Shown one piece after another: positions 2,103 through 15,780 of a stretch of DNA of 15,780 bases. The stretch comes from a bacterium (lineage in GTDB: Bacteria > Zhuqueibacterota > Zhuqueibacteria > Oceanimicrobiales > Oceanimicrobiaceae). The position numbers and the translations under genes are program-made. The DNA lies in contig JBBIIG010000084.1 of NCBI GenBank assembly GCA_037446635.1, positions 1-15,780 on the forward strand, read 5' to 3'. The number at the start of each line of letters is the position of its first letter. The first letter of the stretch is position 1. Under the pieces are notes generated by a model that was not told the DNA's origin, searched no databases, and saw nothing but the letters and a program-made list of their open reading frames with translations.

Positions 2103-2483
2103 CTATTTGAACCGCTGTCGCACCGGCCAAATAAATATCATGAGCAAGCCATACGACAGCGGAATGCGCAGCGTCTTGAAAGTGGGGCCGAGAAAATAGA
2201 TCTCTAAAACCAAAACCACGATCACGAGAATCGAAATCAGCGCGATCCCCCATTTTTTCCACTGCCAAATGGCTGCACAAGCGAGGATGCCGGCGCCGGC
2301 GCAGCCCGCCAGCGCCGCCAAAGCCGGCGGGGTGAGACGCGGGAACTGCGCTAAAAAATCTTGCCAGCGCAGCACCACGGTCGCAGCGCCAAACGCGTTG
2401 AGGATCATGAGCAAAGCGAGAATGATAGCCAACCCCAGCGGCCGGCCGGGGTTGCTTGAATTCGTTGAAGTGCTTGCAGTCAT
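2103..2483 (-). CDS. Hypothetical membrane protein (about 4 TM helices)
   Basis: The ATG at 2483 overlaps the upstream stop (ATGA). 126 aa with four hydrophobic segments. Confidence 0.75.
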   Translation of the reverse strand: MTASTSTNSSNPGRPLGLAIILALLMILNAFGAATVVLRWQDFLAQFPRLTPPALAALAGCAGAGILACAAIWQWKKWGIALISILVIVVLVLEIYFLGPTFKTLRIPLSYGLLMIFIWPVRQRFK

Positions 2484-3856
2484 CGGTTGATTTCCAATGT
2501 TTCTGCATCCGTCAACCCAAAATATTTGATCTTCTTGTGCAGATTGGTGCGGTCGATGTCCAACTCCTTCGCCGCCTGACTGATGTTCCACTTCGTGCGT
2601 TTTAAAACCGCGAGAATGTACTCCCGCTCCACGCTGTTTTTCATTTCTCTCAACGTCATCCCCACTTCGATTTTGAGGGCTGTCTGCGCCGTTGGGTGCT
2701 GAATGTTCGCGGGTAGATCATCGGCGTCAATGGTATCGCCGCTGGCCATGATCATCAGCCGCTCGATCACATTTTTCAATTCGCGAATGTTGCCGGGCCA
2801 ATCGTAGGCGCGCAGGGCCTCCAGCGCCGCGGGCGTCAATTGCTTACGGCGGTAGCCGTTTTCGCGGCTGAAGCTGTCAATGAAATGCTCGATGAGCAGA
2901 GGAAGATCGTCTTTGCGCCGGCGCAGCGGCGGCGCCGTGATGGGCACCACGTTCAAACGAAACAGCAGGTCTTCGCGGAAGCGGCCTTCCTTCACTTCCC
3001 TTTCGAGGTCTTTGTTGGTGGCGGCCAGCACCCGCACATCGACTTTCTCGGTTTTATGTCCACCGACTTTTTCGAATTCACCCTCCTGCAGCACTCGCAG
3101 CACTTTGGCCTGCACTTTCAAACTCATGTCGCCCACTTCGTCTAAAAACAACGTGCCGCCGTCGGCGAGGGTGAACTTGCCGTCGCGGGTTTGATGCGCG
3201 CCGGTGTAGGCGCCCTTTTCGCTGCCAAACAGCTCGCTCTCGATCAGCTCCTCCGGAATCGCCGCGCAGTTGACTTTGATGAACGGCCCGTTTTTGCGCG
3301 GGCTGTTTTCGTGAATAGCGCGCGCGATCAATTCTTTGCCGGCGCCACTTTCGCCAAAAATCAGCACCCGGCCGTTGGTGGGCGCCACTTTAGCGATTTG
3401 CTCCCGCACCTCTTTCATCGCGCGGCTGGCGCCGATCATTTCGTACTTGCCGGCGACCTGCTGCCGCAGCTCTAAATTTTCCCGCTGCAGCCGGCGATTC
3501 TTCAACGCATTCTCGATGGCGATCAGCAGCTTCTCTTTGGAGATGGGCTTTTCGATGAAATCGTACGCGCCCTCTTTGACCGCGGCCACGGCGTTTTGCA
3601 CGGTGGCCTGGCCGGAGATCATAATCACGGTCACATCCGGATAATCCGCATGAATTTTTTTGAGAAGCTGCAGGCCGTCGGTTTTGGGCATGATGATGTC
3701 CAGCAGCGCCAGATCGATCATGCCGGCCTCGAGATGTTTCAGCGCTTCGTCGCTCTCCGCTGCGGTTTTGACGGCGTACCCTTCGCCGCTGCAAATCATC
3801 TCCAGCGAGCGGCGGATGTTTTTTTCGTCGTCAACGATCAGGATGGTAACGGCCAT
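2480..3856 (-). CDS. Sigma-54-dependent response regulator (NtrC/NtrX/AtoC family: REC-AAA+-Fis HTH)
   Basis: REC domain (IVDDE, LLDIIMP, ISG, EKP), Walker A GESGAGKE, ESELFGSEKGAYTGA, Walker B LFLDEVG, FREDLLFRLNV, WPGNIREL, HTH NISQAAKELDIDRTNLHKKIK. Confidence 0.96.
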   Translation of the reverse strand: MAVTILIVDDEKNIRRSLEMICSGEGYAVKTAAESDEALKHLEAGMIDLALLDIIMPKTDGLQLLKKIHADYPDVTVIMISGQATVQNAVAAVKEGAYDFIEKPISKEKLLIAIENALKNRRLQRENLELRQQVAGKYEMIGASRAMKEVREQIAKVAPTNGRVLIFGESGAGKELIARAIHENSPRKNGPFIKVNCAAIPEELIESELFGSEKGAYTGAHQTRDGKFTLADGGTLFLDEVGDMSLKVQAKVLRVLQEGEFEKVGGHKTEKVDVRVLAATNKDLEREVKEGRFREDLLFRLNVVPITAPPLRRRKDDLPLLIEHFIDSFSRENGYRRKQLTPAALEALRAYDWPGNIRELKNVIERLMIMASGDTIDADDLPANIQHPTAQTALKIEVGMTLREMKNSVEREYILAVLKRTKWNISQAAKELDIDRTNLHKKIKYFGLTDAETLEINR

Positions 3857-8765: not shown

Positions 8766-8857
8766 ACCGCAAAGAACGCAAAGCTGGCGCAAAGGCGCTA
8801 AGAAAATTTAAGCTCTTTCATTGCGTTCTTTTGCGTTTCCTTCGCGAACTTTGCGGT
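8766..8857. repeat. CGCAAAG-type palindromic repeat element between convergent genes (possible bidirectional terminator)
   Basis: The left arm ACCGCAAAG-AACGCAAAG-CTGGCGCAAAG-GCGCTAAG mirrors the right arm TTGCGTT-CTTTTGCGTT-TCCTTCGCGAA-CTTTGCGGT. Terminal 9-bp perfect inverted repeat. Confidence 0.75.
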
Positions 8858-9951
8858 TAAGTTTCAGTATTCAGGCGCTTTTCGGTGAGTTCAGTGTTTT
8901 TAAAACCAACTCCGTGAATCTCTACCTTCCCTTCTTCGCCCAATTTTCCATCAATAGAAATTTTCGCGCCTAAAAATTTTTGGATCACGTCGGCGTTGGT
9001 GAGCAGATGCTGAGTGATTTTTGGAGTCACAAATTGCGAGACGCCCGCGGCCAGGCTCAGCGGCAGCAGCAACTGATCGGCTAAAAATTCATCAAAGACG
9101 CCGCCCGTGGCCAGAAATCTCGTGAAGGACTCGGCCGCTTCCGCAGCAACTTTTTCCGCCGGCTTGCCTGTCTGCACAGGCTGGCCGCGCGCACCCAAAG
9201 CAAAATAGCAGCACAAAGAGCGCTCGAACACCCCTAACAGCAGCATCATGGTGTTGACCCCGCGCGACCGCAATTCTTTGATTTCGATATTGGGCGCGAT
9301 GCCGCGGCTCTTCAACATCCGCAGCGCCTGGTTCATCTGGCGCTCCGCCACCTCGCGTCGGAGATTGGCGTACGCCGAGATGCCCAATGTTTTTTTAAGC
9401 TCGCCGCGATGAGTGAGCTGCAGCGGCGCAACCGTTTTGACCGGTTGAATTTTCGCCACGATTTTCCCACCGCCCTTGGGATAGAAGCCGGCTTCGACGA
9501 GCTGCAACTCCGCATCGAAGCCCAGGCGCTTCATGAACGGCAGCCATTGCAGTTCCAGGTAATCGTAGCACGGCGACCACGGTACATGGGTGCCGCCAGT
9601 GATGGTGATTTGCGATGGGGACGCGGCAAAGCTCAAGGGCAGGAAGACCGTTTGCAGCACCAGGGTCGCGGCGCCGGCGGTGCCAATGTCAAACTGGTAG
9701 TCGCCAGCGGCAACCGCGCCGGGCTCAAACGTCAATTGGGTGGAATGCAGTTGAATGTCAGAGACGCGCGCGCGGCAGATAGCGCCCGCGGCCTCCACGC
9801 TTTTGAGATGCTGCGGCTGCAATCCGGGCTTGGGGCGATTTTGCCGGATATTTTTGATCTTGAACGCTTGAGCGGTCAAAGCAGACAGAGCGAGAGCCGA
9901 TCGCAGAATCTGGCCGCCACCCTCCCCGGCGGAGCCGTCGATTTCGATCAT
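8857..9951 (-). CDS. rtcA: RNA 3'-terminal phosphate cyclase
   Basis: MIEIDGSAGEGGGQILRSAL, RPKPGLQPQHL, GGTHVPWSP, GFYPKGGG, DEFLADQLL and the catalytic-His region TQHLLTNADVI. ATG at 9951. Confidence 0.96.
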   Translation of the reverse strand: MIEIDGSAGEGGGQILRSALALSALTAQAFKIKNIRQNRPKPGLQPQHLKSVEAAGAICRARVSDIQLHSTQLTFEPGAVAAGDYQFDIGTAGAATLVLQTVFLPLSFAASPSQITITGGTHVPWSPCYDYLELQWLPFMKRLGFDAELQLVEAGFYPKGGGKIVAKIQPVKTVAPLQLTHRGELKKTLGISAYANLRREVAERQMNQALRMLKSRGIAPNIEIKELRSRGVNTMMLLLGVFERSLCCYFALGARGQPVQTGKPAEKVAAEAAESFTRFLATGGVFDEFLADQLLLPLSLAAGVSQFVTPKITQHLLTNADVIQKFLGAKISIDGKLGEEGKVEIHGVGFKNTELTEKRLNTET

Positions 9952-9952
9952 A

Positions 9953-11083
9953 TCACCTGGAAAGCTCACTGAAATGGTTCAGCGCCTCACTTCTCCATTC
10001 GGATTTGTCTTCCACTTCCAAGTCGAGATACGTTTCCCACGCCGCTTTCGCTAAGTCGGTTTTCCCCATGGCTTCCAAAACGATGGCTTTGTTGAAATGA
10101 GCCTCCGGAAGTTGGGGGTTGAGAGCTAAAGCTCGTTCTAAACAGTCGAGCGCTTTGAGCAAGTCTTTGCGATGGAAGTGAATCAAAGAGAGGTCGTTAT
10201 GAATTTCGGCGTTGTTGCTATCCAAAGCCAGCGCCCGCTGGTAATAGGTTTCAGCAAGATCAATCTCGCCATTAAAATAATAGACGGTTCCCAGCATGTG
10301 ATTGAGATGGAAATGGTTGGGTTGAATTTCCAGCGCGTTAAGGAAGGGGGCGGGATCGGCGTTGGAGGTAAGCGCTTCACCGCTTTTGGTGCTGAAACTT
10401 TTTAAGCTGTACCCACCCGAAGGTCGCAGTTCGCCGGCTTTGACATAAAGTCTTTTTGGAAGTTCATTTGTAAAAAAGTCGATGGGTTTTTGAATTAAAA
10501 AGTGCACCTCCAGCTTGCGGTAGCCAAAAAAAGCGAGTAGAATCAGGCCGACCGCAAAGCCCAACTTGAAGGTGAGAGAGAGTTGCTGCCAGGAAAGTCG
10601 GGCGGCGGCGAGAACTTCGACGAAATAATTTTTAACCGGCCGGGTCTCAAAGCGGCGGCGGTATTTGGCCAAGCGGCCTTCCACTTTTTCCGCATCGAGT
10701 TGCTTGAGAAAATCCTGCCCGGCGTCGCTTAGCATGTCGAGCGAGGCTCTGGCGGCGCTGCTGAATTCGTGGAAGCAATCGTTGCAAGCTGCTAAATGCC
10801 GATGCATCCACTCGCGCTGGGTGTGATTAATCGTGCCCTGATAGTATTGTTCTAACAATGGCGCGGAGATGTGTTGGAGGTCACGCTTGGGCTGCTGACC
10901 CGGCGGGGTGGGTTCCTGCCTGATTTTTATTACTTCCTGAATTTTCCGAATGAACGTGAGTTTCTCGCGGCAGCGCTCGCAGGATTGTAGATGCTGCTCC
11001 ATCCAGAGGGTCTGCTCTTGCGTCAGCCGAGCGTTTATCAAGCCGAAAAGCTGGTGAAATGTCAAACAATCGTATGATTTCAT
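9953..11083 (-). CDS. Putative anti-sigma factor: two zf-HC2 (ZAS) zinc fingers, one TM helix, C-terminal TPR domain
   Basis: HLQSCERC and HLAACNDC (HxxxCxxC) motifs, TM segment LGFAVGLILLAFFGY, TPR repeats (LGTVYYFNGEIDLAETYYQRALALD..., AHFNKAIVLEAMGK). Directly downstream of a sigma factor, with RBS AGGGG. Confidence 0.85.
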   Translation of the reverse strand: MKSYDCLTFHQLFGLINARLTQEQTLWMEQHLQSCERCREKLTFIRKIQEVIKIRQEPTPPGQQPKRDLQHISAPLLEQYYQGTINHTQREWMHRHLAACNDCFHEFSSAARASLDMLSDAGQDFLKQLDAEKVEGRLAKYRRRFETRPVKNYFVEVLAAARLSWQQLSLTFKLGFAVGLILLAFFGYRKLEVHFLIQKPIDFFTNELPKRLYVKAGELRPSGGYSLKSFSTKSGEALTSNADPAPFLNALEIQPNHFHLNHMLGTVYYFNGEIDLAETYYQRALALDSNNAEIHNDLSLIHFHRKDLLKALDCLERALALNPQLPEAHFNKAIVLEAMGKTDLAKAAWETYLDLEVEDKSEWRSEALNHFSELSR

Positions 11084-11187
11084 CACTCTACCCCTTTAGG
11101 TTTATCCCACAATTTTGAAATGGCTATTCCATCTACCAGTCTTAATAGACAAACCTAACACTAAAAAACTCTCAGATGACTCAAAAA

Positions 11188-11853
11188 TCAATTTTCGAAG
11201 TATATTTTTTCCAGCGTCTTCTTCATGCGGCTAACGGTGCTCTCAACTCCACTTGCCGAGAGTTCACCATTAATAATGTTGTGAATCTGTTTAGGGGATA
11301 AGCCTTCAAAGAAATAGAGCTTAAATATCAAGATATCACGATCGAGATTGCGGCTGGGATAGTTGGCGCGCAGCATTCTGATAATATGTTCCTTTACAAA
11401 CGCTTCGTCCAAATGTTCTTCGGTTTCGTTGGTCACGGAGTTGATCCTGAAAAGCTCCGGGGCGCTGGATTCGCCAATGACGTCATTCATGCGCCTCTGC
11501 TGCAATTTTTCTCTTTTGGAAAAATTTTTGGTCAGGTTGATGGTGATGCTTCGCAGGTAAGCTCGAAAGGACTCGGTGTGTTCGCCGCGGAACTCCTTCA
11601 GGGCTTTGCCGTCGTCTTTCAAAAGCTTTTCATACACATCCTGCCGCAGGTCTTGAATCGATTCCTTGAGATCGTAAATAACTGAAGAGCTCAACTGCCG
11701 TCTTAGTTCATAAAGAATCATAAAGAAGATGTATTCATCAAATCTTCTCTCGAATTCTTTCCAGAATCTATTCCAATCCGGGGAGTGCTCACGGCATTTT
11801 TTGATCAAGTCATTATCGGATAGATCCTCGATAAGCTGTGCAACCACAAGCAC
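11188..11853 (-). CDS. ECF-type sigma-70 family RNA polymerase sigma factor
   Basis: LSDNDLIKKC...WKEFERRF; region 2 IQDLRQDVYEKL...SFRAYLRSITINLTKN; region 4 RDILIFKLYFFEGLSPKQI...GVESTVSRMKKTL. The start is uncertain (GTG at 11853 or 11847); the ORF-track extension to 11988 does not look like sigma-factor sequence. Confidence 0.88.
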   Translation of the reverse strand: MLVVAQLIEDLSDNDLIKKCREHSPDWNRFWKEFERRFDEYIFFMILYELRRQLSSSVIYDLKESIQDLRQDVYEKLLKDDGKALKEFRGEHTESFRAYLRSITINLTKNFSKREKLQQRRMNDVIGESSAPELFRINSVTNETEEHLDEAFVKEHIIRMLRANYPSRNLDRDILIFKLYFFEGLSPKQIHNIINGELSASGVESTVSRMKKTLEKIYFEN

Positions 11854-12170
11854 AGAAGATAAGAAAAGCAAAAAATGGTTGAGCAAAGTTGGGAGGAGCG
11901 AGGACGCGGCTCGCATGACGGCATCGTATTGAAGCTGCCACCCCCAAAAACCGATTGCAGCCTCTACACAGACATTCCACGTTGGCATAACGGGAGACCT
12001 GGCTTTGCCGGTTAATAATTGCTACTAAATTTCAAAACTGAGCCAAGAAAGCTGGGGCTGCCCCCAAGGCAACATCTTAAAGCAAGACGTCCAATATTAG
12101 TTGCTTATGTAGCAATTAGCAGATTAAAAATCAAGGAATTCTAAGAATTTTTTGGGAATTTTTTTAGCGT

Positions 12171-12962
12171 TTAGAGCTTTCCACGCCGCCGTTCTTTGGC
12201 CGGCAAAATTTCTAAACAGGTTGTCCACCAGCCGCTGAGAATGGTTTCGATAAACTCCGGCGGCAGATTTTCTTCACGCATCTCCTGCGCCAGGCGTTGG
12301 TGGTCGTATGCCAGCGGAATGAATTCGATTGCCGCTTCGCCATTCGCCGTGACGAGGGCGTACCAGACGTTGGTTTGGCCATCGTTCTCCGGCCGGCCAA
12401 TCACGCCGACGTTGGCAAACAACTTGTGGCCCACTCGCCGCTGCCAGTGAATACCGGTGTGGGTGGCGAGGATGACGTCGGCGGCAAAATCGCGAAACAG
12501 TTTTTCCAAAAAGTGATCGGGCGTCGTCGATTCCCAGAGAAACTCGTTGGTTTTACGGGGCGAGCCGTGGCAGAGCAAAAAGTGTTTGCCGCCGAACTCA
12601 AAGCGGATTTCCTTTGGAAGGTGTTTTTGATACTTTTTGAAATCGTCGCTGGTGTGGGCGAAGGTGTAATCGTAGCTGAGCTGCGCAAAGTAATTGTCGC
12701 GGGGATCGGTGTAGCCGCACTGGCAGTCTTTCAAACCGTTGCCCACCGAGTGATCGTAATTGCCCTGTACGACGGAAATATGATTCTCTAACAAAAGTGG
12801 GAAAACCCGATCGGGATGCGGCCCGAATGCGCCCAGATCGCCCAGGCAAAAGAGCTTCTCCGCCCCGCGTTGTTTTGCATCTTTGATGAAGGCATCCAAT
12901 GCGAGATAGTTGTTGTACACGCCGCCGCAGACAGCGATTTTTTTAAAGGGGAGGTTGGTCAT
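12171..12962 (-). CDS. Calcineurin-like metallophosphoesterase family protein with degenerate metal motifs
   Basis: KIAVCGGVYNNYLAL, CLGDLGAFGPHP, QGNYD, LCHGSP, LATHTG and NVGVIGRP follow the YfcE/MJ0936-like layout. The start is placed at ATG 12962. Confidence 0.88.
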   Translation of the reverse strand: MTNLPFKKIAVCGGVYNNYLALDAFIKDAKQRGAEKLFCLGDLGAFGPHPDRVFPLLLENHISVVQGNYDHSVGNGLKDCQCGYTDPRDNYFAQLSYDYTFAHTSDDFKKYQKHLPKEIRFEFGGKHFLLCHGSPRKTNEFLWESTTPDHFLEKLFRDFAADVILATHTGIHWQRRVGHKLFANVGVIGRPENDGQTNVWYALVTANGEAAIEFIPLAYDHQRLAQEMREENLPPEFIETILSGWWTTCLEILPAKERRRGKL

Positions 12963-12982
12963 TACAATTATGATGGCGTAAT

Positions 12983-13015
12983 AGATGACTGGCACTTTGA
13001 AAGTGCCAGTCATCT
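12983..13015. repeat. Perfect intragenic-spacer palindrome (REP-like)
   Basis: AGATGACTGGCACTT-TGA-AAGTGCCAGTCATCT is a 15-bp perfect stem between two co-oriented genes, with no U-tract. Confidence 0.8.
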
Positions 13016-13032
13016 CAGTTATTTACAGCTTA

Positions 13033-14202
13033 TCAGCAGCACCCATCCACGCCGCAGTAGGGCGCATCGGTAATTTCGGTTCTCTTGTACTCCAAACCCT
13101 TGGTTTCGCGCGGGTGGCGGCGGGCGTTTTTGCTGCAATTGAATGGCTGCGCCGCCTCCAGTGAAATGGTTTCGTACGGCTCGACGGCGATGATATCCTG
13201 GCGGTAGGGCGCCTTCGTATAAATTTGAAACGTCTTATCGCACACCGCCATCCGTTCGCCGCGGTAGAGGGTGTGGCCGTCATCGTCAATCACCGCCTTC
13301 CAGGGGCCGCGGTAGATCACCGCCTGGTTGCGCTCGCGGCACGGCCCCTCTTTGCCTTTGTACGCCGTCACCGTGACCGCGCGAAACTCGATGCCCTCCA
13401 CCGTTTGCCACGGGCGTTCATCGCGCTTTTCTATTTCGATGCCATAAAAGCCGGCGTCAGCAAAGGCTTGCAGGAATTCATCTTCCCGCAGGGCGCCGGA
13501 GATGCAGCCGCTCCACAGGTCGGGGTCGTTTTTCAAACGGTCGGGCACATCTTCATCCGAGACGATATCGGAGATGGCGATACGGCCGCCGGCTTTCAAC
13601 ACGCGATAAATTTCTGCAAACAGCCGTCGCTTGTCTTCGTCTTTCACCAGGTTCAACACGCAATTGGAGACCACCAGATCCACCGAGTCATCCGGGATCA
13701 ACGGATAATTTTGGCGCTGCGCCGCCACGAACTCTTCGTAGCGCACCAAATCATTGGCGTTTTGCACCGGATTTTCGCGCAGATAAAAATCGATCTTGTC
13801 CAGGTCCAGCCGCAAGTCCTGAATTTTGCCGCGCCGAAAATCTACATTGTGATAGCCCAGGCGATCGCCGATCTCTCTTTGATATTTTCGCGCCAGCTCT
13901 AACATCTCCGCATTCATGTCCACGCCGATGACCCGCCCTTGGGCGCCCACCTTCTGCGCCAGGATGTAGCAAATTTTGCCGGCGCCGCTGCCGAGGTCTA
14001 AAACCGTTTCGCCGGGTTGCGCATATTTTGAAGGATCGCCGCAGCCGTAGTCGCGCTCTAAAATTTCCGCCGGCAGAATTTTTAAAAATTCCGGATCGTA
14101 TTCCACCGGACAGCAGAGCGCGGCTTCCCGCTGCTGCGCCGCCTGCGAATAGCGCTGGCGCACCGCCCGTTCCACCACCATCGTTTCTTCTGAAAATGAC
14201 AT
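13033..14202 (-). CDS. arsM: ArsM/AS3MT-like SAM-dependent arsenite methyltransferase
   Basis: GGAGG RBS. SAM motif VLDLGSGAG, GVDMN. Cys pattern of As(III) methyltransferases: LCCP (C30/C31), YGCGDP (C54), SNCVLNL (C181), LWSGCISGA (C233). AS3MT-like C-terminal domain and terminal GCC. Confidence 0.82.
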   Translation of the reverse strand: MSFSEETMVVERAVRQRYSQAAQQREAALCCPVEYDPEFLKILPAEILERDYGCGDPSKYAQPGETVLDLGSGAGKICYILAQKVGAQGRVIGVDMNAEMLELARKYQREIGDRLGYHNVDFRRGKIQDLRLDLDKIDFYLRENPVQNANDLVRYEEFVAAQRQNYPLIPDDSVDLVVSNCVLNLVKDEDKRRLFAEIYRVLKAGGRIAISDIVSDEDVPDRLKNDPDLWSGCISGALREDEFLQAFADAGFYGIEIEKRDERPWQTVEGIEFRAVTVTAYKGKEGPCRERNQAVIYRGPWKAVIDDDGHTLYRGERMAVCDKTFQIYTKAPYRQDIIAVEPYETISLEAAQPFNCSKNARRHPRETKGLEYKRTEITDAPYCGVDGCC

Positions 14203-14226
14203 AGTTCGCCTCCGTTGAAATTTTCA

Positions 14227-15351
14227 TCAAAATGCAATTTGCTGAAACATCAAATTAAAATAGTAAGCTAAAACGCCGGCGGTGGGCAAGGTCACCGCCC
14301 AGGCCAGAATAATTTCGCGCACCACCCGCCAGTCGATGCCTCGTCGCGCTTCCAAGCCGATGCCCACAATGGCGCTGGTGGTGACGTGGGTGGTGGAGAG
14401 CGGCATCCCGAAAAAGGTCGCCGTGCTCACTAAAATAGACGAGCAGGCGTTGGCGGAGAGTGCTTCAATGCTGTCCATCGCGGTGATTTTTTCTGAAAGC
14501 GTGTGCAGCACCCGCCGCCCCCAGAGCAAACTGCCGAGGCACATTCCCAGCGCCGCCAATCCCAAAGCGGGCGCCGCGGATGCGCCGTCAACCCAGGCGA
14601 CGCTCAGCAGCAGCGCCGCGATCTTGGGGGCATCGTTCATGCCGCGGGCAAAGCTGGTGAGGCCGCTGGTGAAAATGTGCAGGGCGTCGGCTGCTTGAAC
14701 TTTGACGCCAACCACCGTATTCTTCGGCTCGCAGGCCTCGGCTTGGCCGGCGATCAGATGAAGCTTTGGCGCGTCGGCGGCCGCCAGTAAGGTTGGCCCC
14801 GCGGCGGTTGGCGCCGGCGCGAGCCCGTTGTGTTGAACTTCAAGGCACAAGCAATACGCTTGCGTTCGAGAAAGCATGCGCCGGAAAATTGGCATACTCA
14901 ACCGGGTCAGAGCGGCGGCCATCACTGGACTCAGAGCCAGCGGCAGGGCCGCTTTCTGCAGCAGCGCTTCCCAGACGATTGCACTCGATCCGGTTTGCGC
15001 CCAGGCCGCGCCGATGAGTCCGCCCACCAATGCGTGCGTGGTGGAAATCGGCATCCCGAGGCGAGTAGCGATGAACAGCCAAACGATTGCCGACAACGCC
15101 ATCGCCAGTGGCAGCAGCGGAGAAGAAATTGGCTGGGAGAGCAGCGCCGAAGAAAACGTGCGCAAGAGGCTGGCGCCGACGACTCCACCTACCAGCGCGC
15201 CGGCGCCGGTCAGGAACGTTCCCCACAAAATAGCTGTCTGCGGGCGCAGCGCTCTCCCGCCCACCAGCGTGGCGACGCCCTTTGAAATATCGTTGGCGCC
15301 ATTGGCGGCCGCTAAAATAAACACGAAAATCGGAATCAATAACTCCGTCAA
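14227..15351 (-). CDS. PiT (inorganic phosphate/oxyanion transporter, PHO4) family permease
   Basis: TTG start with GAAGGA RBS. Duplicated PiT signatures ANGANDISKG and RGMNDAPK, GMPISTTH and GMPLSTTH, and AWAVTLP. Confidence 0.92.
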   Translation of the reverse strand: MTELLIPIFVFILAAANGANDISKGVATLVGGRALRPQTAILWGTFLTGAGALVGGVVGASLLRTFSSALLSQPISSPLLPLAMALSAIVWLFIATRLGMPISTTHALVGGLIGAAWAQTGSSAIVWEALLQKAALPLALSPVMAAALTRLSMPIFRRMLSRTQAYCLCLEVQHNGLAPAPTAAGPTLLAAADAPKLHLIAGQAEACEPKNTVVGVKVQAADALHIFTSGLTSFARGMNDAPKIAALLLSVAWVDGASAAPALGLAALGMCLGSLLWGRRVLHTLSEKITAMDSIEALSANACSSILVSTATFFGMPLSTTHVTTSAIVGIGLEARRGIDWRVVREIILAWAVTLPTAGVLAYYFNLMFQQIAF

Positions 15352-15378
15352 AGTTTTTCCTTCGTTTGATTGAGTGAG

Positions 15379-15780
15379 TTATTTTTCCGAAGCCGAGAAA
15401 TTGTGGCAGATGGCGCCGGCAAGATAACAGGTGTAGCACGCTTGATGTTTGAGCGGATAGGGCATAAACGAATCCGCCAGCGTGTCGCTCACTTTGGCTT
15501 CGGGATAATCAATCAAGATTGGGCAGACGTACACCCCTTTGTCGGTGGCCATCCGGCTGTGAGTACATTGCAGCAAATTTTCGTCGTAGTCGGCCATCAT
15601 CTCTTTGGCGACGTATTCGTAGCGATCGTAGCCGCGGCCGCGGATTTTCTCGCGCCCAATTCGTAACGGAGGAATCAGCTTGATGCGCGGGCGCGTGTAA
15701 CCCATTTCAAAAAGCATCTTGCGAAAGCCCTGGAAGATCGCTTCCGTTTCCGAATCCTCCCAGGTTTGCGCCGCGGTGAT
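15379..15780 (-). CDS. Probable radical SAM protein, C-terminal Cys-rich part only (5' end outside the window)
   Basis: The frame stays open to the window edge (ITAAQTWEDSETEAIFQGFRKMLFEMG...). LQCTHSRM...GVYVCPIL...HQACYTCYLAGAICHN resembles a twitch/SPASM-like auxiliary domain. The CxxxCxxC motif itself is not visible. Confidence 0.7.
   Translation of the reverse strand: MTAAQTWEDSETEAIFQGFRKMLFEMGYTRPRIKLIPPLRIGREKIRGRGYDRYEYVAKEMMADYDENLLQCTHSRMATDKGVYVCPILIDYPEAKVSDTLADSFMPYPLKHQACYTCYLAGAICHNFSASEK

Follow-up and report, generated by a model that had tools for sequence, protein, structure and literature searches.

A predicted five-gene arsenic operon built around an ArsS-like radical SAM enzyme in a bacterium of the Zhuqueibacterota

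The contig JBBIIG010000084.1 of assembly GCA_037446635.1 (15,780 nt, studied over its entire length and called the window, or C84) comes from a 97% complete bacterial genome, and the closest named relatives of its encoded proteins bear the labels KSB1 or Calditrichaceae. At one end of the window, and continuing on a second contig, lies a predicted operon of five genes, which encode from 5' to 3' an ArsV-like flavoprotein, an enzyme of the radical S-adenosylmethionine (SAM) type, here called rSAM-X, a PiT transporter, a long ArsM-type methyltransferase, and a Car1-like metallophosphoesterase-fold protein (MPE). We lean slightly towards reading this operon as an ArsS-independent route to arsenosugar-type compounds or their precursor, in which arsenic would be imported, reduced, methylated, adenosylated, and oxidised. 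The substrate is very probably arsenic, and rSAM-X probably forms a carbon-arsenic bond, a reaction for which PMC12159101 gives only two radical SAM enzymes as known. The original prediction, made from the letters of the window, had proposed a biosynthesis operon for an organoarsenical or other metalloid compound; its arsenic link and its biosynthetic reading are strengthened here: arsenic pathways contain relatives of each gene, the same families turn up together in different phyla, and the radical SAM enzyme is distinct from both ArsS and ArsL. As predicted, the five genes would cover every step that leads from arsenate to the product.

All five genes are encoded on the minus strand. The window holds the C-terminal 133 amino acids of rSAM-X (15379–15780, an open reading frame that is open at its 5' end and cut by the contig end), the PiT/PHO4 transporter with a cysteine-bearing central loop (14227–15351), the methyltransferase (13033–14202, 389 aa), and the MPE (12171–12962, 263 aa). 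The 191 N-terminal residues of rSAM-X, including its CxxxCxxC motif, are found on contig C59 (1–575), and the flavoprotein gene (412 aa) lies upstream of them in the same orientation (C59, 624–1862). We join the two contigs into one predicted operon because a full-length rSAM-X from the same genus (L031) spans both, its residues 1–192 matching C59 and its residues 194–325 matching the 15379–15780 region, and because C59 starts with the CxxxCxxC-bearing half, followed by the upstream flavoprotein gene. The comparison with L031 indicates a gap of about one base between C59 and C84.

The four co-oriented genes seen originally in the window are present as open reading frames, separated by 27 nt (rSAM-X to PiT), 24 nt (PiT to methyltransferase), and 70 nt (methyltransferase to MPE), the last distance depending on ATG 12962 as the MPE start. 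Most close homologues start aligning near this codon, and the longer alternative, ATG 13013, falls within a perfect 15-bp inverted repeat in the spacer (12983–13015, without strand, z −5.07). The 17-base core of the repeat resembles a repetitive extragenic palindromic (REP)-type element and occurs in 21 copies genome-wide, which rules out the hairpin as an operon-specific regulator. A promoter and terminator scan of the operon region stayed at chance level, and no RNA data set holding the operon DNA was listed. Two public DNA runs, both with the label hot-spring metagenome, contain contigs that bridge, with few differences, the three junctions between genes inside the window; these runs are possibly one data set or the source itself, and so are not independent support. 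The reported absence of arsR, arsB/acr3, and arsC holds for the window but not for the genome, in which C23 (8395–14108, genome G000) carries an arsR-permease-arsC-acr3 locus with a second MarR, and C77 (L102:4469–6310) a separate marR-arsN2-arsM operon whose canonical arsM scores above its cut-off. Resistance would therefore be handled outside the five-gene operon.

The C-terminal tail of rSAM-X alone gives no Pfam or NCBIfam match, and the radical SAM identity assigned to it originally became evident from the N-terminal half on C59, after the upstream sequence had been retrieved. The full-length protein has about 325–326 residues, with CxxxCxxC at residues 57–64 and a twitch/SPASM-like tail in which five cysteines are invariant (71 of 71 alignment rows). 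The motif formerly given as CYTC-x5-C in this tail is spaced C-x2-C-x6-C in all 71 rows and shows x5 in none. ArsS has the same layout, with about 300–330 residues, an N-terminal CxxxCxxC, and five C-terminal cysteines in the same order. A profile comparison of rSAM-X with six true ArsS proteins reached 98.1% over 207 columns, and the global-mode profile alignment paired all five C-terminal cysteines one to one. These alignments suggest that rSAM-X is built like ArsS, without being a member of its family, and that the two are sisters. ArsL, in contrast, has 428 residues with its CxxxCxxC at 194–201, and it ends in RCCLKC, described as its C-terminal arsenite-binding motif (10.1101/2024.02.01.577332); the absence of this motif, already remarked from the tail, extends to all 71 rSAM-X rows and rules out that rSAM-X is ArsL.

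Searches of wider scope returned generic matches. The predicted model of rSAM-X (predicted local distance difference test score 84.7) resembles the twitch/SPASM enzymes SkfB, BlsE, and anSME, the structure search found only general twitch/SPASM radical SAM proteins, and an Atlas look-up found only generic radical SAM clusters. No NCBIfam cut-off was passed by six full-length relatives among the 25 best families of each. A protein search with rSAM-X scored 8,000 clusters, of which at least 7,237 reached an E-value of 1e-40 or lower; the 120 matches listed have generic names or none, which points to a large unnamed family. Genome G159 contains two rSAM-X::ArsM fusion genes (L125:7361–9184 and L126:6797–8374) and no close-type MPE; one copy is located directly behind TIGR04283-like and TIGR04282-like genes, and the second fusion (L126) seems to run on in another frame close to its end. 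Elsewhere, a single open frame of 734 aa comprises the flavoprotein and rSAM-X (L026:6313–8517). Three further loci (L137:1805–4306, L143, and L201) encode radical SAM proteins of 830–880 aa with a different core motif, which score 98–128 bits with the rSAM-X profile; they also hold an ArsM match and a Cys-loop PiT, and a fusion to ArsM was shown for L137.

The distribution of rSAM-X against that of ArsS was counted in one sample of 91 genomes of the Planctomycetota, which was searched four times; 90 of them were drawn from those at least 90% complete, and the centre genome, chosen as a carrier, was added. rSAM-X was found in 8 genomes, ArsS above its cut-off in 30, and both in none. The long ArsM occurs in 25 genomes, of which 24 possess rSAM-X or ArsS: 7 are rSAM-X genomes and 17 are ArsS genomes, and only 1 of the 53 genomes with neither enzyme has it. 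Among the non-ArsS genomes the association of ArsM with rSAM-X gives a Fisher value of 1e-7, which overstates the case because kin are not independent. Close-type MPEs were present in 6 of the 91 genomes, always adjoining rSAM-X (6 of its 8 genomes), and in none of the 30 ArsS genomes. In 50 further module-bearing genomes, ArsS was detected once and the long ArsM 28 times, mostly unlinked. ArsS was not found in the present genome. Among 61 relatives, 25 carry the module, 9 carry ArsS, and 2 carry both; MPE is found in 25 of them and the methyltransferase in 25, with both in 23, each pair within about 3 kb. rSAM-X thus behaves as an ArsS replacement, the two being rarely found in one genome. 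This replacement extends across several phyla, and surveys that count arsS would miss such producers.

The predicted co-occurrence of the gene families in other genomes was found across phyla, but the four genes of the window do not form a conserved unit. In an MPE-based scan (165 loci confirmed, the best 80 returned, many reaching contig ends), rSAM-X was the most constant neighbour of MPE (73/80), followed by the flavoprotein (48/80) and the methyltransferase (17/80; two of these of a more distant ArsM type with 34–35% identity, and four on the other strand), while the PiT of this operon was seen in one locus. Accessory genes of the arsenosugar type (TIGR04282, TIGR04283, or TIGR04169) accompany 15 of the 80 loci; among 95 chosen neighbours, TIGR04282 exceeded its cut-off at six loci, TIGR04283 at four, and TIGR04169 at three. 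These genes, the long ArsM, and the Cys-loop PiT are common to the related ArsM/ArsS clusters. rSAM-X differs from ArsS in travelling with the Car1-like protein and the ArsV-like flavoprotein, neither of which was seen at the 16 ArsS loci of the PiT scan described below. A phosphate-selective porin (5/80), a putative permease (8/80), and phosphonate-type ABC systems also lie beside the module. The recurring 450-aa permease had been considered a sodium-solute symporter; one copy was checked and gave no Pfam hit, and this assignment was dropped.

The MPE shows a weak metallophosphoesterase match in Pfam and NCBIfam, and fold searches pointed to YfcE-like phosphoesterases. Its family retains D42, N68, H132, and H168, while in 81 of 81 rows the D-x-H of motif I is replaced by G-x-Y (G14, Y16) and the last histidine of GHxH by glycine (G170). 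In the phosphoesterase fold the lost residues serve to bind one metal of the pair, and their loss in every row rules out an ordinary binuclear hydrolase. Three cysteines (C39, C80, and C82) are kept in all 81 rows, and an extra C-terminal one in a WWTTCLE motif (C249) in 80. The closest plasmid homologues include ars-operon proteins of Paraclostridium, Adhaeribacter, and Hymenobacter; of 64 records three neighbourhoods were opened, and all three were ars loci, with gene orders such as arsR-MPE-arsM and arsR-arsN2-arsM-MPE-acr3. These three homologues, at 32–35% identity, have a CxC at 74/76 that aligns with C80/C82. Car1 of Rufibacter tibetensis is described as an As(V) reductase of the metallophosphoesterase fold in which Cys74 and Cys76 are essential (PMC12124457), and our comparison with it was made through the same-family ars-operon stand-ins. 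MPE shares the fold and the CxC with these proteins, but differs from Car1 in lacking the metal-1 ligands, in its extra cysteine, and in having a radical SAM enzyme rather than Acr3 as its partner.

The former proposal that this protein processes a phospho- or arseno-ester is accordingly not sustained. Because the ligands of metal 1 are lost and a CxC equivalent to the essential one of Car1 is retained, reduction is likelier than hydrolysis. MPE would be a redox protein with a single metal and not a hydrolase, probably a reductase, and possibly one suited to methylated arsenates; it would then be a natural case of a phosphoesterase fold turned reductase through loss of a metal site. The same metal-ligand loss was found in a distant MPE on a Roseomonas plasmid (L122:4980–11940), where TIGR04282, DUF547, a second radical SAM gene, a distant rSAM-X, and a phosphonate-type ABC transporter are also encoded. 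The ArsS-bearing genome G186 encodes another distant MPE, which has an FGGxY motif and a CxC and carries a further domain fused at its C-terminal end (L226:958–3045).

The transporter, a predicted arsenate importer, is a clear PiT member (PF01384, 231.8 bits at a gathering score of 33.7), and among 87 rows its loop cysteines occur in 82 (C167), 83 (C169), and 78 (C207). Its neighbours were collected from the best 80 of at least 538 metagenome loci, many of them short, and included 26 ArsM-type methyltransferases, 16 ArsS, and 5 rSAM-X. Loci L130 to L133 have the order rSAM-X, MPE, PiT, ArsM, AhpD, flavoprotein, with a DUF2064 gene in addition in L133, and L134 has PiT, ArsM, and AhpD with ArsS in place of rSAM-X and MPE. 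The transporter occurs in 14 of the 61 relatives, 13 of which are module carriers, and lies inside the cluster in four. Its presence in one of 80 MPE loci had suggested a local insertion, which was overturned by the shared PiT-ArsM-AhpD cassettes and by the distribution among relatives. This PiT belongs to a Cys-loop subfamily and is an accessory common to rSAM-X and ArsS clusters, and PiT and the methyltransferase are exchangeable parts that ArsS clusters also use. A pitA gene is reported near the arsinothricin cluster of Burkholderia (PMC8552651), but the transporter of arsQML itself is ArsQ, of the GntP type.

The methyltransferase has a class I SAM fold, and the cysteines C30, C31, C54, C181, and C233 are kept in 16 of 16 rows; C30, C54, C181, and C233 are also the residue numbers given for the four catalytic cysteines of BgArsM in PMC8552651. 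The cysteine clusters on which the original prediction drew are conserved beyond chance in the alignments of all four proteins encoded in the window. The best family is NF040538, the arsinothricin ArsM (383.9 bits), a likeness to arsQML that stays below the cut-off of 500; PRK11873 (213.8 bits, cut-off 263) and AsSugarArsM (145.1 bits, cut-off 400) were not reached either. We take the protein to be a predicted ArsM-type As(III) methyltransferase. In a tree of 34 methyltransferases, members linked to rSAM-X and members linked to ArsS interleave, and therefore an arsinothricin-like product cannot be read from a long ArsM alone; its use as a marker of such a product is ruled out, as it also partners ArsS. 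The interleaving fits repeated enzyme swapping.

The flavoprotein matches 154 plasmid records, the best 20 at 35–39% identity. Of the two neighbourhoods opened, the first, from Ensifer, has an arsR-flavoprotein-arsK order beside an arsenite oxidase locus and shows 40% identity over nearly the full length, and the second has marR-flavoprotein near arsR, arsB, arsC, arsD, and arsA. We presume that the Ensifer gene between arsR and arsK is arsV. The flavoprotein shares a cysteine and a KSYGR motif with this Ensifer protein, but lacks its cysteine-rich tail and has a family-specific second cysteine (C330, in an HECYA motif) in 44 of 47 rows. None of the curated ArsV models matched it at E 1e-25. 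ArsV is reported as a flavin monooxygenase that oxidises methylarsenite (MAs(III)), and ArsV-type proteins are reported to act on Sb(III) too (10.1101/2021.08.12.456183).

Placed in order, the five proteins suggest the following route, in which every activity, the transport direction, the order of steps, and the transferred group are predicted from relatives. PiT would import arsenate, the Car1-like MPE would reduce As(V), and ArsM would methylate As(III). The methylated arsenic would then receive a 5'-deoxyadenosyl group through rSAM-X; that this group is adenosyl, as for ArsS, seems to us a little better than an even guess. Pentavalent arsenic may be formed by the ArsV-like flavoprotein, which would oxidise either the trivalent product or stray methylarsenite; ArsM products are reported to oxidise in air (PMC8552651). 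According to PMC13598754, ArsS adds the 5'-deoxyadenosyl radical to dimethylarsenite (DMAs(III)), and As(V) has to be reduced before ArsL can use it, so a dedicated reductase would have a use in such a pathway.

Several observations weigh against an ArsS-independent arsenosugar route. rSAM-X is only about 20% identical to ArsS: the ArsS model TIGR04167, with a cut-off of 300 bits, gave 37–62 bits for six full-length relatives and 53 bits for the N-terminal half on C59. DUF3641 (PF12345), to which a true ArsS scores 186 bits, is absent from the rSAM-X of L031; on the scores and the missing domain, rSAM-X is ruled out as ArsS itself. Its highest-scoring family, of the Rv1681 type (84–109 bits), is unrelated to ArsS. 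The C-terminal halves of rSAM-X and ArsS, aligned on their own, gave no significant match (2.5%). With the rSAM-X profile, ArsS scores 32–51 bits versus 15–39 bits for other radical SAM proteins of the genome, so small an excess that the sister status is weak. The exclusion of ArsS by rSAM-X has exceptions (G013, G058, and G086), and its Fisher p of 0.049 in the Planctomycetota is thin alone and overstated by kinship. By this query 22 of the 50 module genomes have no long ArsM. In the present genome, glycosyltransferase-type genes are scattered (C14 and C32), with only ArsM adjacent, and no TIGR04169 homologue was found. ArsS clusters also run without this MPE (0/30 genomes); rSAM-X may therefore have a requirement that ArsS lacks, and its product may be another.

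A different product is the main rival for this reason, since MPE accompanies rSAM-X and is missing from genomes with ArsS, and we consider it unlikely. The pathway would be the same arsenic pathway, but rSAM-X would make another C-As compound than ArsS does, by transferring another SAM fragment, by taking arsenic with one methyl group or none as its substrate ahead of ArsM (as in arsinothricin biosynthesis), or by activating an As-methyl group; dedicated steps that tailor this product would fall to the one-metal MPE and the flavoprotein. The near-constant, always adjacent MPE, with its metal site remodelled in every row, would suit such steps, as would C330 of the flavoprotein and the reading frame that it shares with rSAM-X in L026; the methyltransferase also scores best with the arsinothricin ArsM, which methylates already substituted arsenic. 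Against this stand the presence of the same methyltransferase clade beside ArsS, and the ArsS layout, cysteine pattern, accessory genes, and exclusion of ArsS that rSAM-X displays, which fit two enzymes for one job. Salvage or breakdown appears quite improbable: imported pentavalent organoarsenicals (methylarsenates or arsenosugars) would be reduced by MPE and remodelled or cleaved by rSAM-X and the flavoprotein. Porin, permease, and phosphonate-type importers do recur by the module, and the MPE pocket, with one metal fewer, could be wider and accept a bulkier arsenate, but the fusion of rSAM-X to ArsM and the displacement of ArsS point to synthesis. A bypass of ArsM in importer-bearing genomes was ruled out, since 7 of the 10 tested hold an ArsM, 5 of them above the cut-off.

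That the arsenic labels are inherited from homologues and the true substrate is a compound of antimony, selenium, tellurium, or phosphorus is very improbable. The activity of ArsV-type proteins on Sb(III) leaves room for it, several ArsM-like families are selenoproteins, and by family the PiT, the porin, and the ABC systems count as carriers of phosphate or phosphonate; yet four independent families have their nearest characterised or annotated relatives all in arsenic pathways, and the conserved columns of rSAM-X and C39, C80, and C82 of MPE are cysteine in every row, as counted in full-length open frames only, a restriction by which UGA-bearing forms would have been dropped. The least credible reading is a plain detoxification operon that reduces, methylates, and oxidises, with the radical SAM enzyme as a helper unrelated to arsenic. 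Car1-like, ArsM, and ArsV-like genes are all known in resistance operons, but this genome keeps separate resistance operons on C23 and C77, the five genes include neither repressor nor efflux gene, and rSAM-X is the most constant neighbour of MPE and fuses to ArsM.

Within the ArsS-independent route that we favour, the product of the operon may simply be the known ArsS product. A bolder proposal, which we hold only tentatively and think less likely to be right than wrong, is that rSAM-X is a third C-As-forming radical SAM family after ArsS and ArsL and that an undescribed organoarsenical is made by it, together with a derivative of ArsV and a one-metal derivative of Car1 specialised for organic arsenates, in thousands of mostly uncultured bacteria of the KSB1, Calditrichota, Planctomycetota, Ignavibacteria, Verrucomicrobia, and Gemmatimonadota. 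A literature search, judged from titles and the openings of abstracts and leaving most subscription journals uncovered, found no paper on the rSAM-X family or the operon. The present analysis adds the subfamily of Cys-loop PiT transporters and the counts of ArsS displacement at the level of genomes.

Other genes were noted elsewhere in the window. Just downstream of the operon, a lower-GC region (9953–11988) holds a gene for an extracytoplasmic function (ECF) sigma factor and, after it, an anti-sigma-like gene of the zinc-finger/TPR kind; no link to the operon was seen. An RNA 3'-phosphate cyclase (8857–9969), a sigma-54 response regulator (2480–3856), a 2Fe-2S ferredoxin (872–1240), and a cut B12-binding radical SAM gene (3–827) are ordinary neighbours and are not conserved next to the module.

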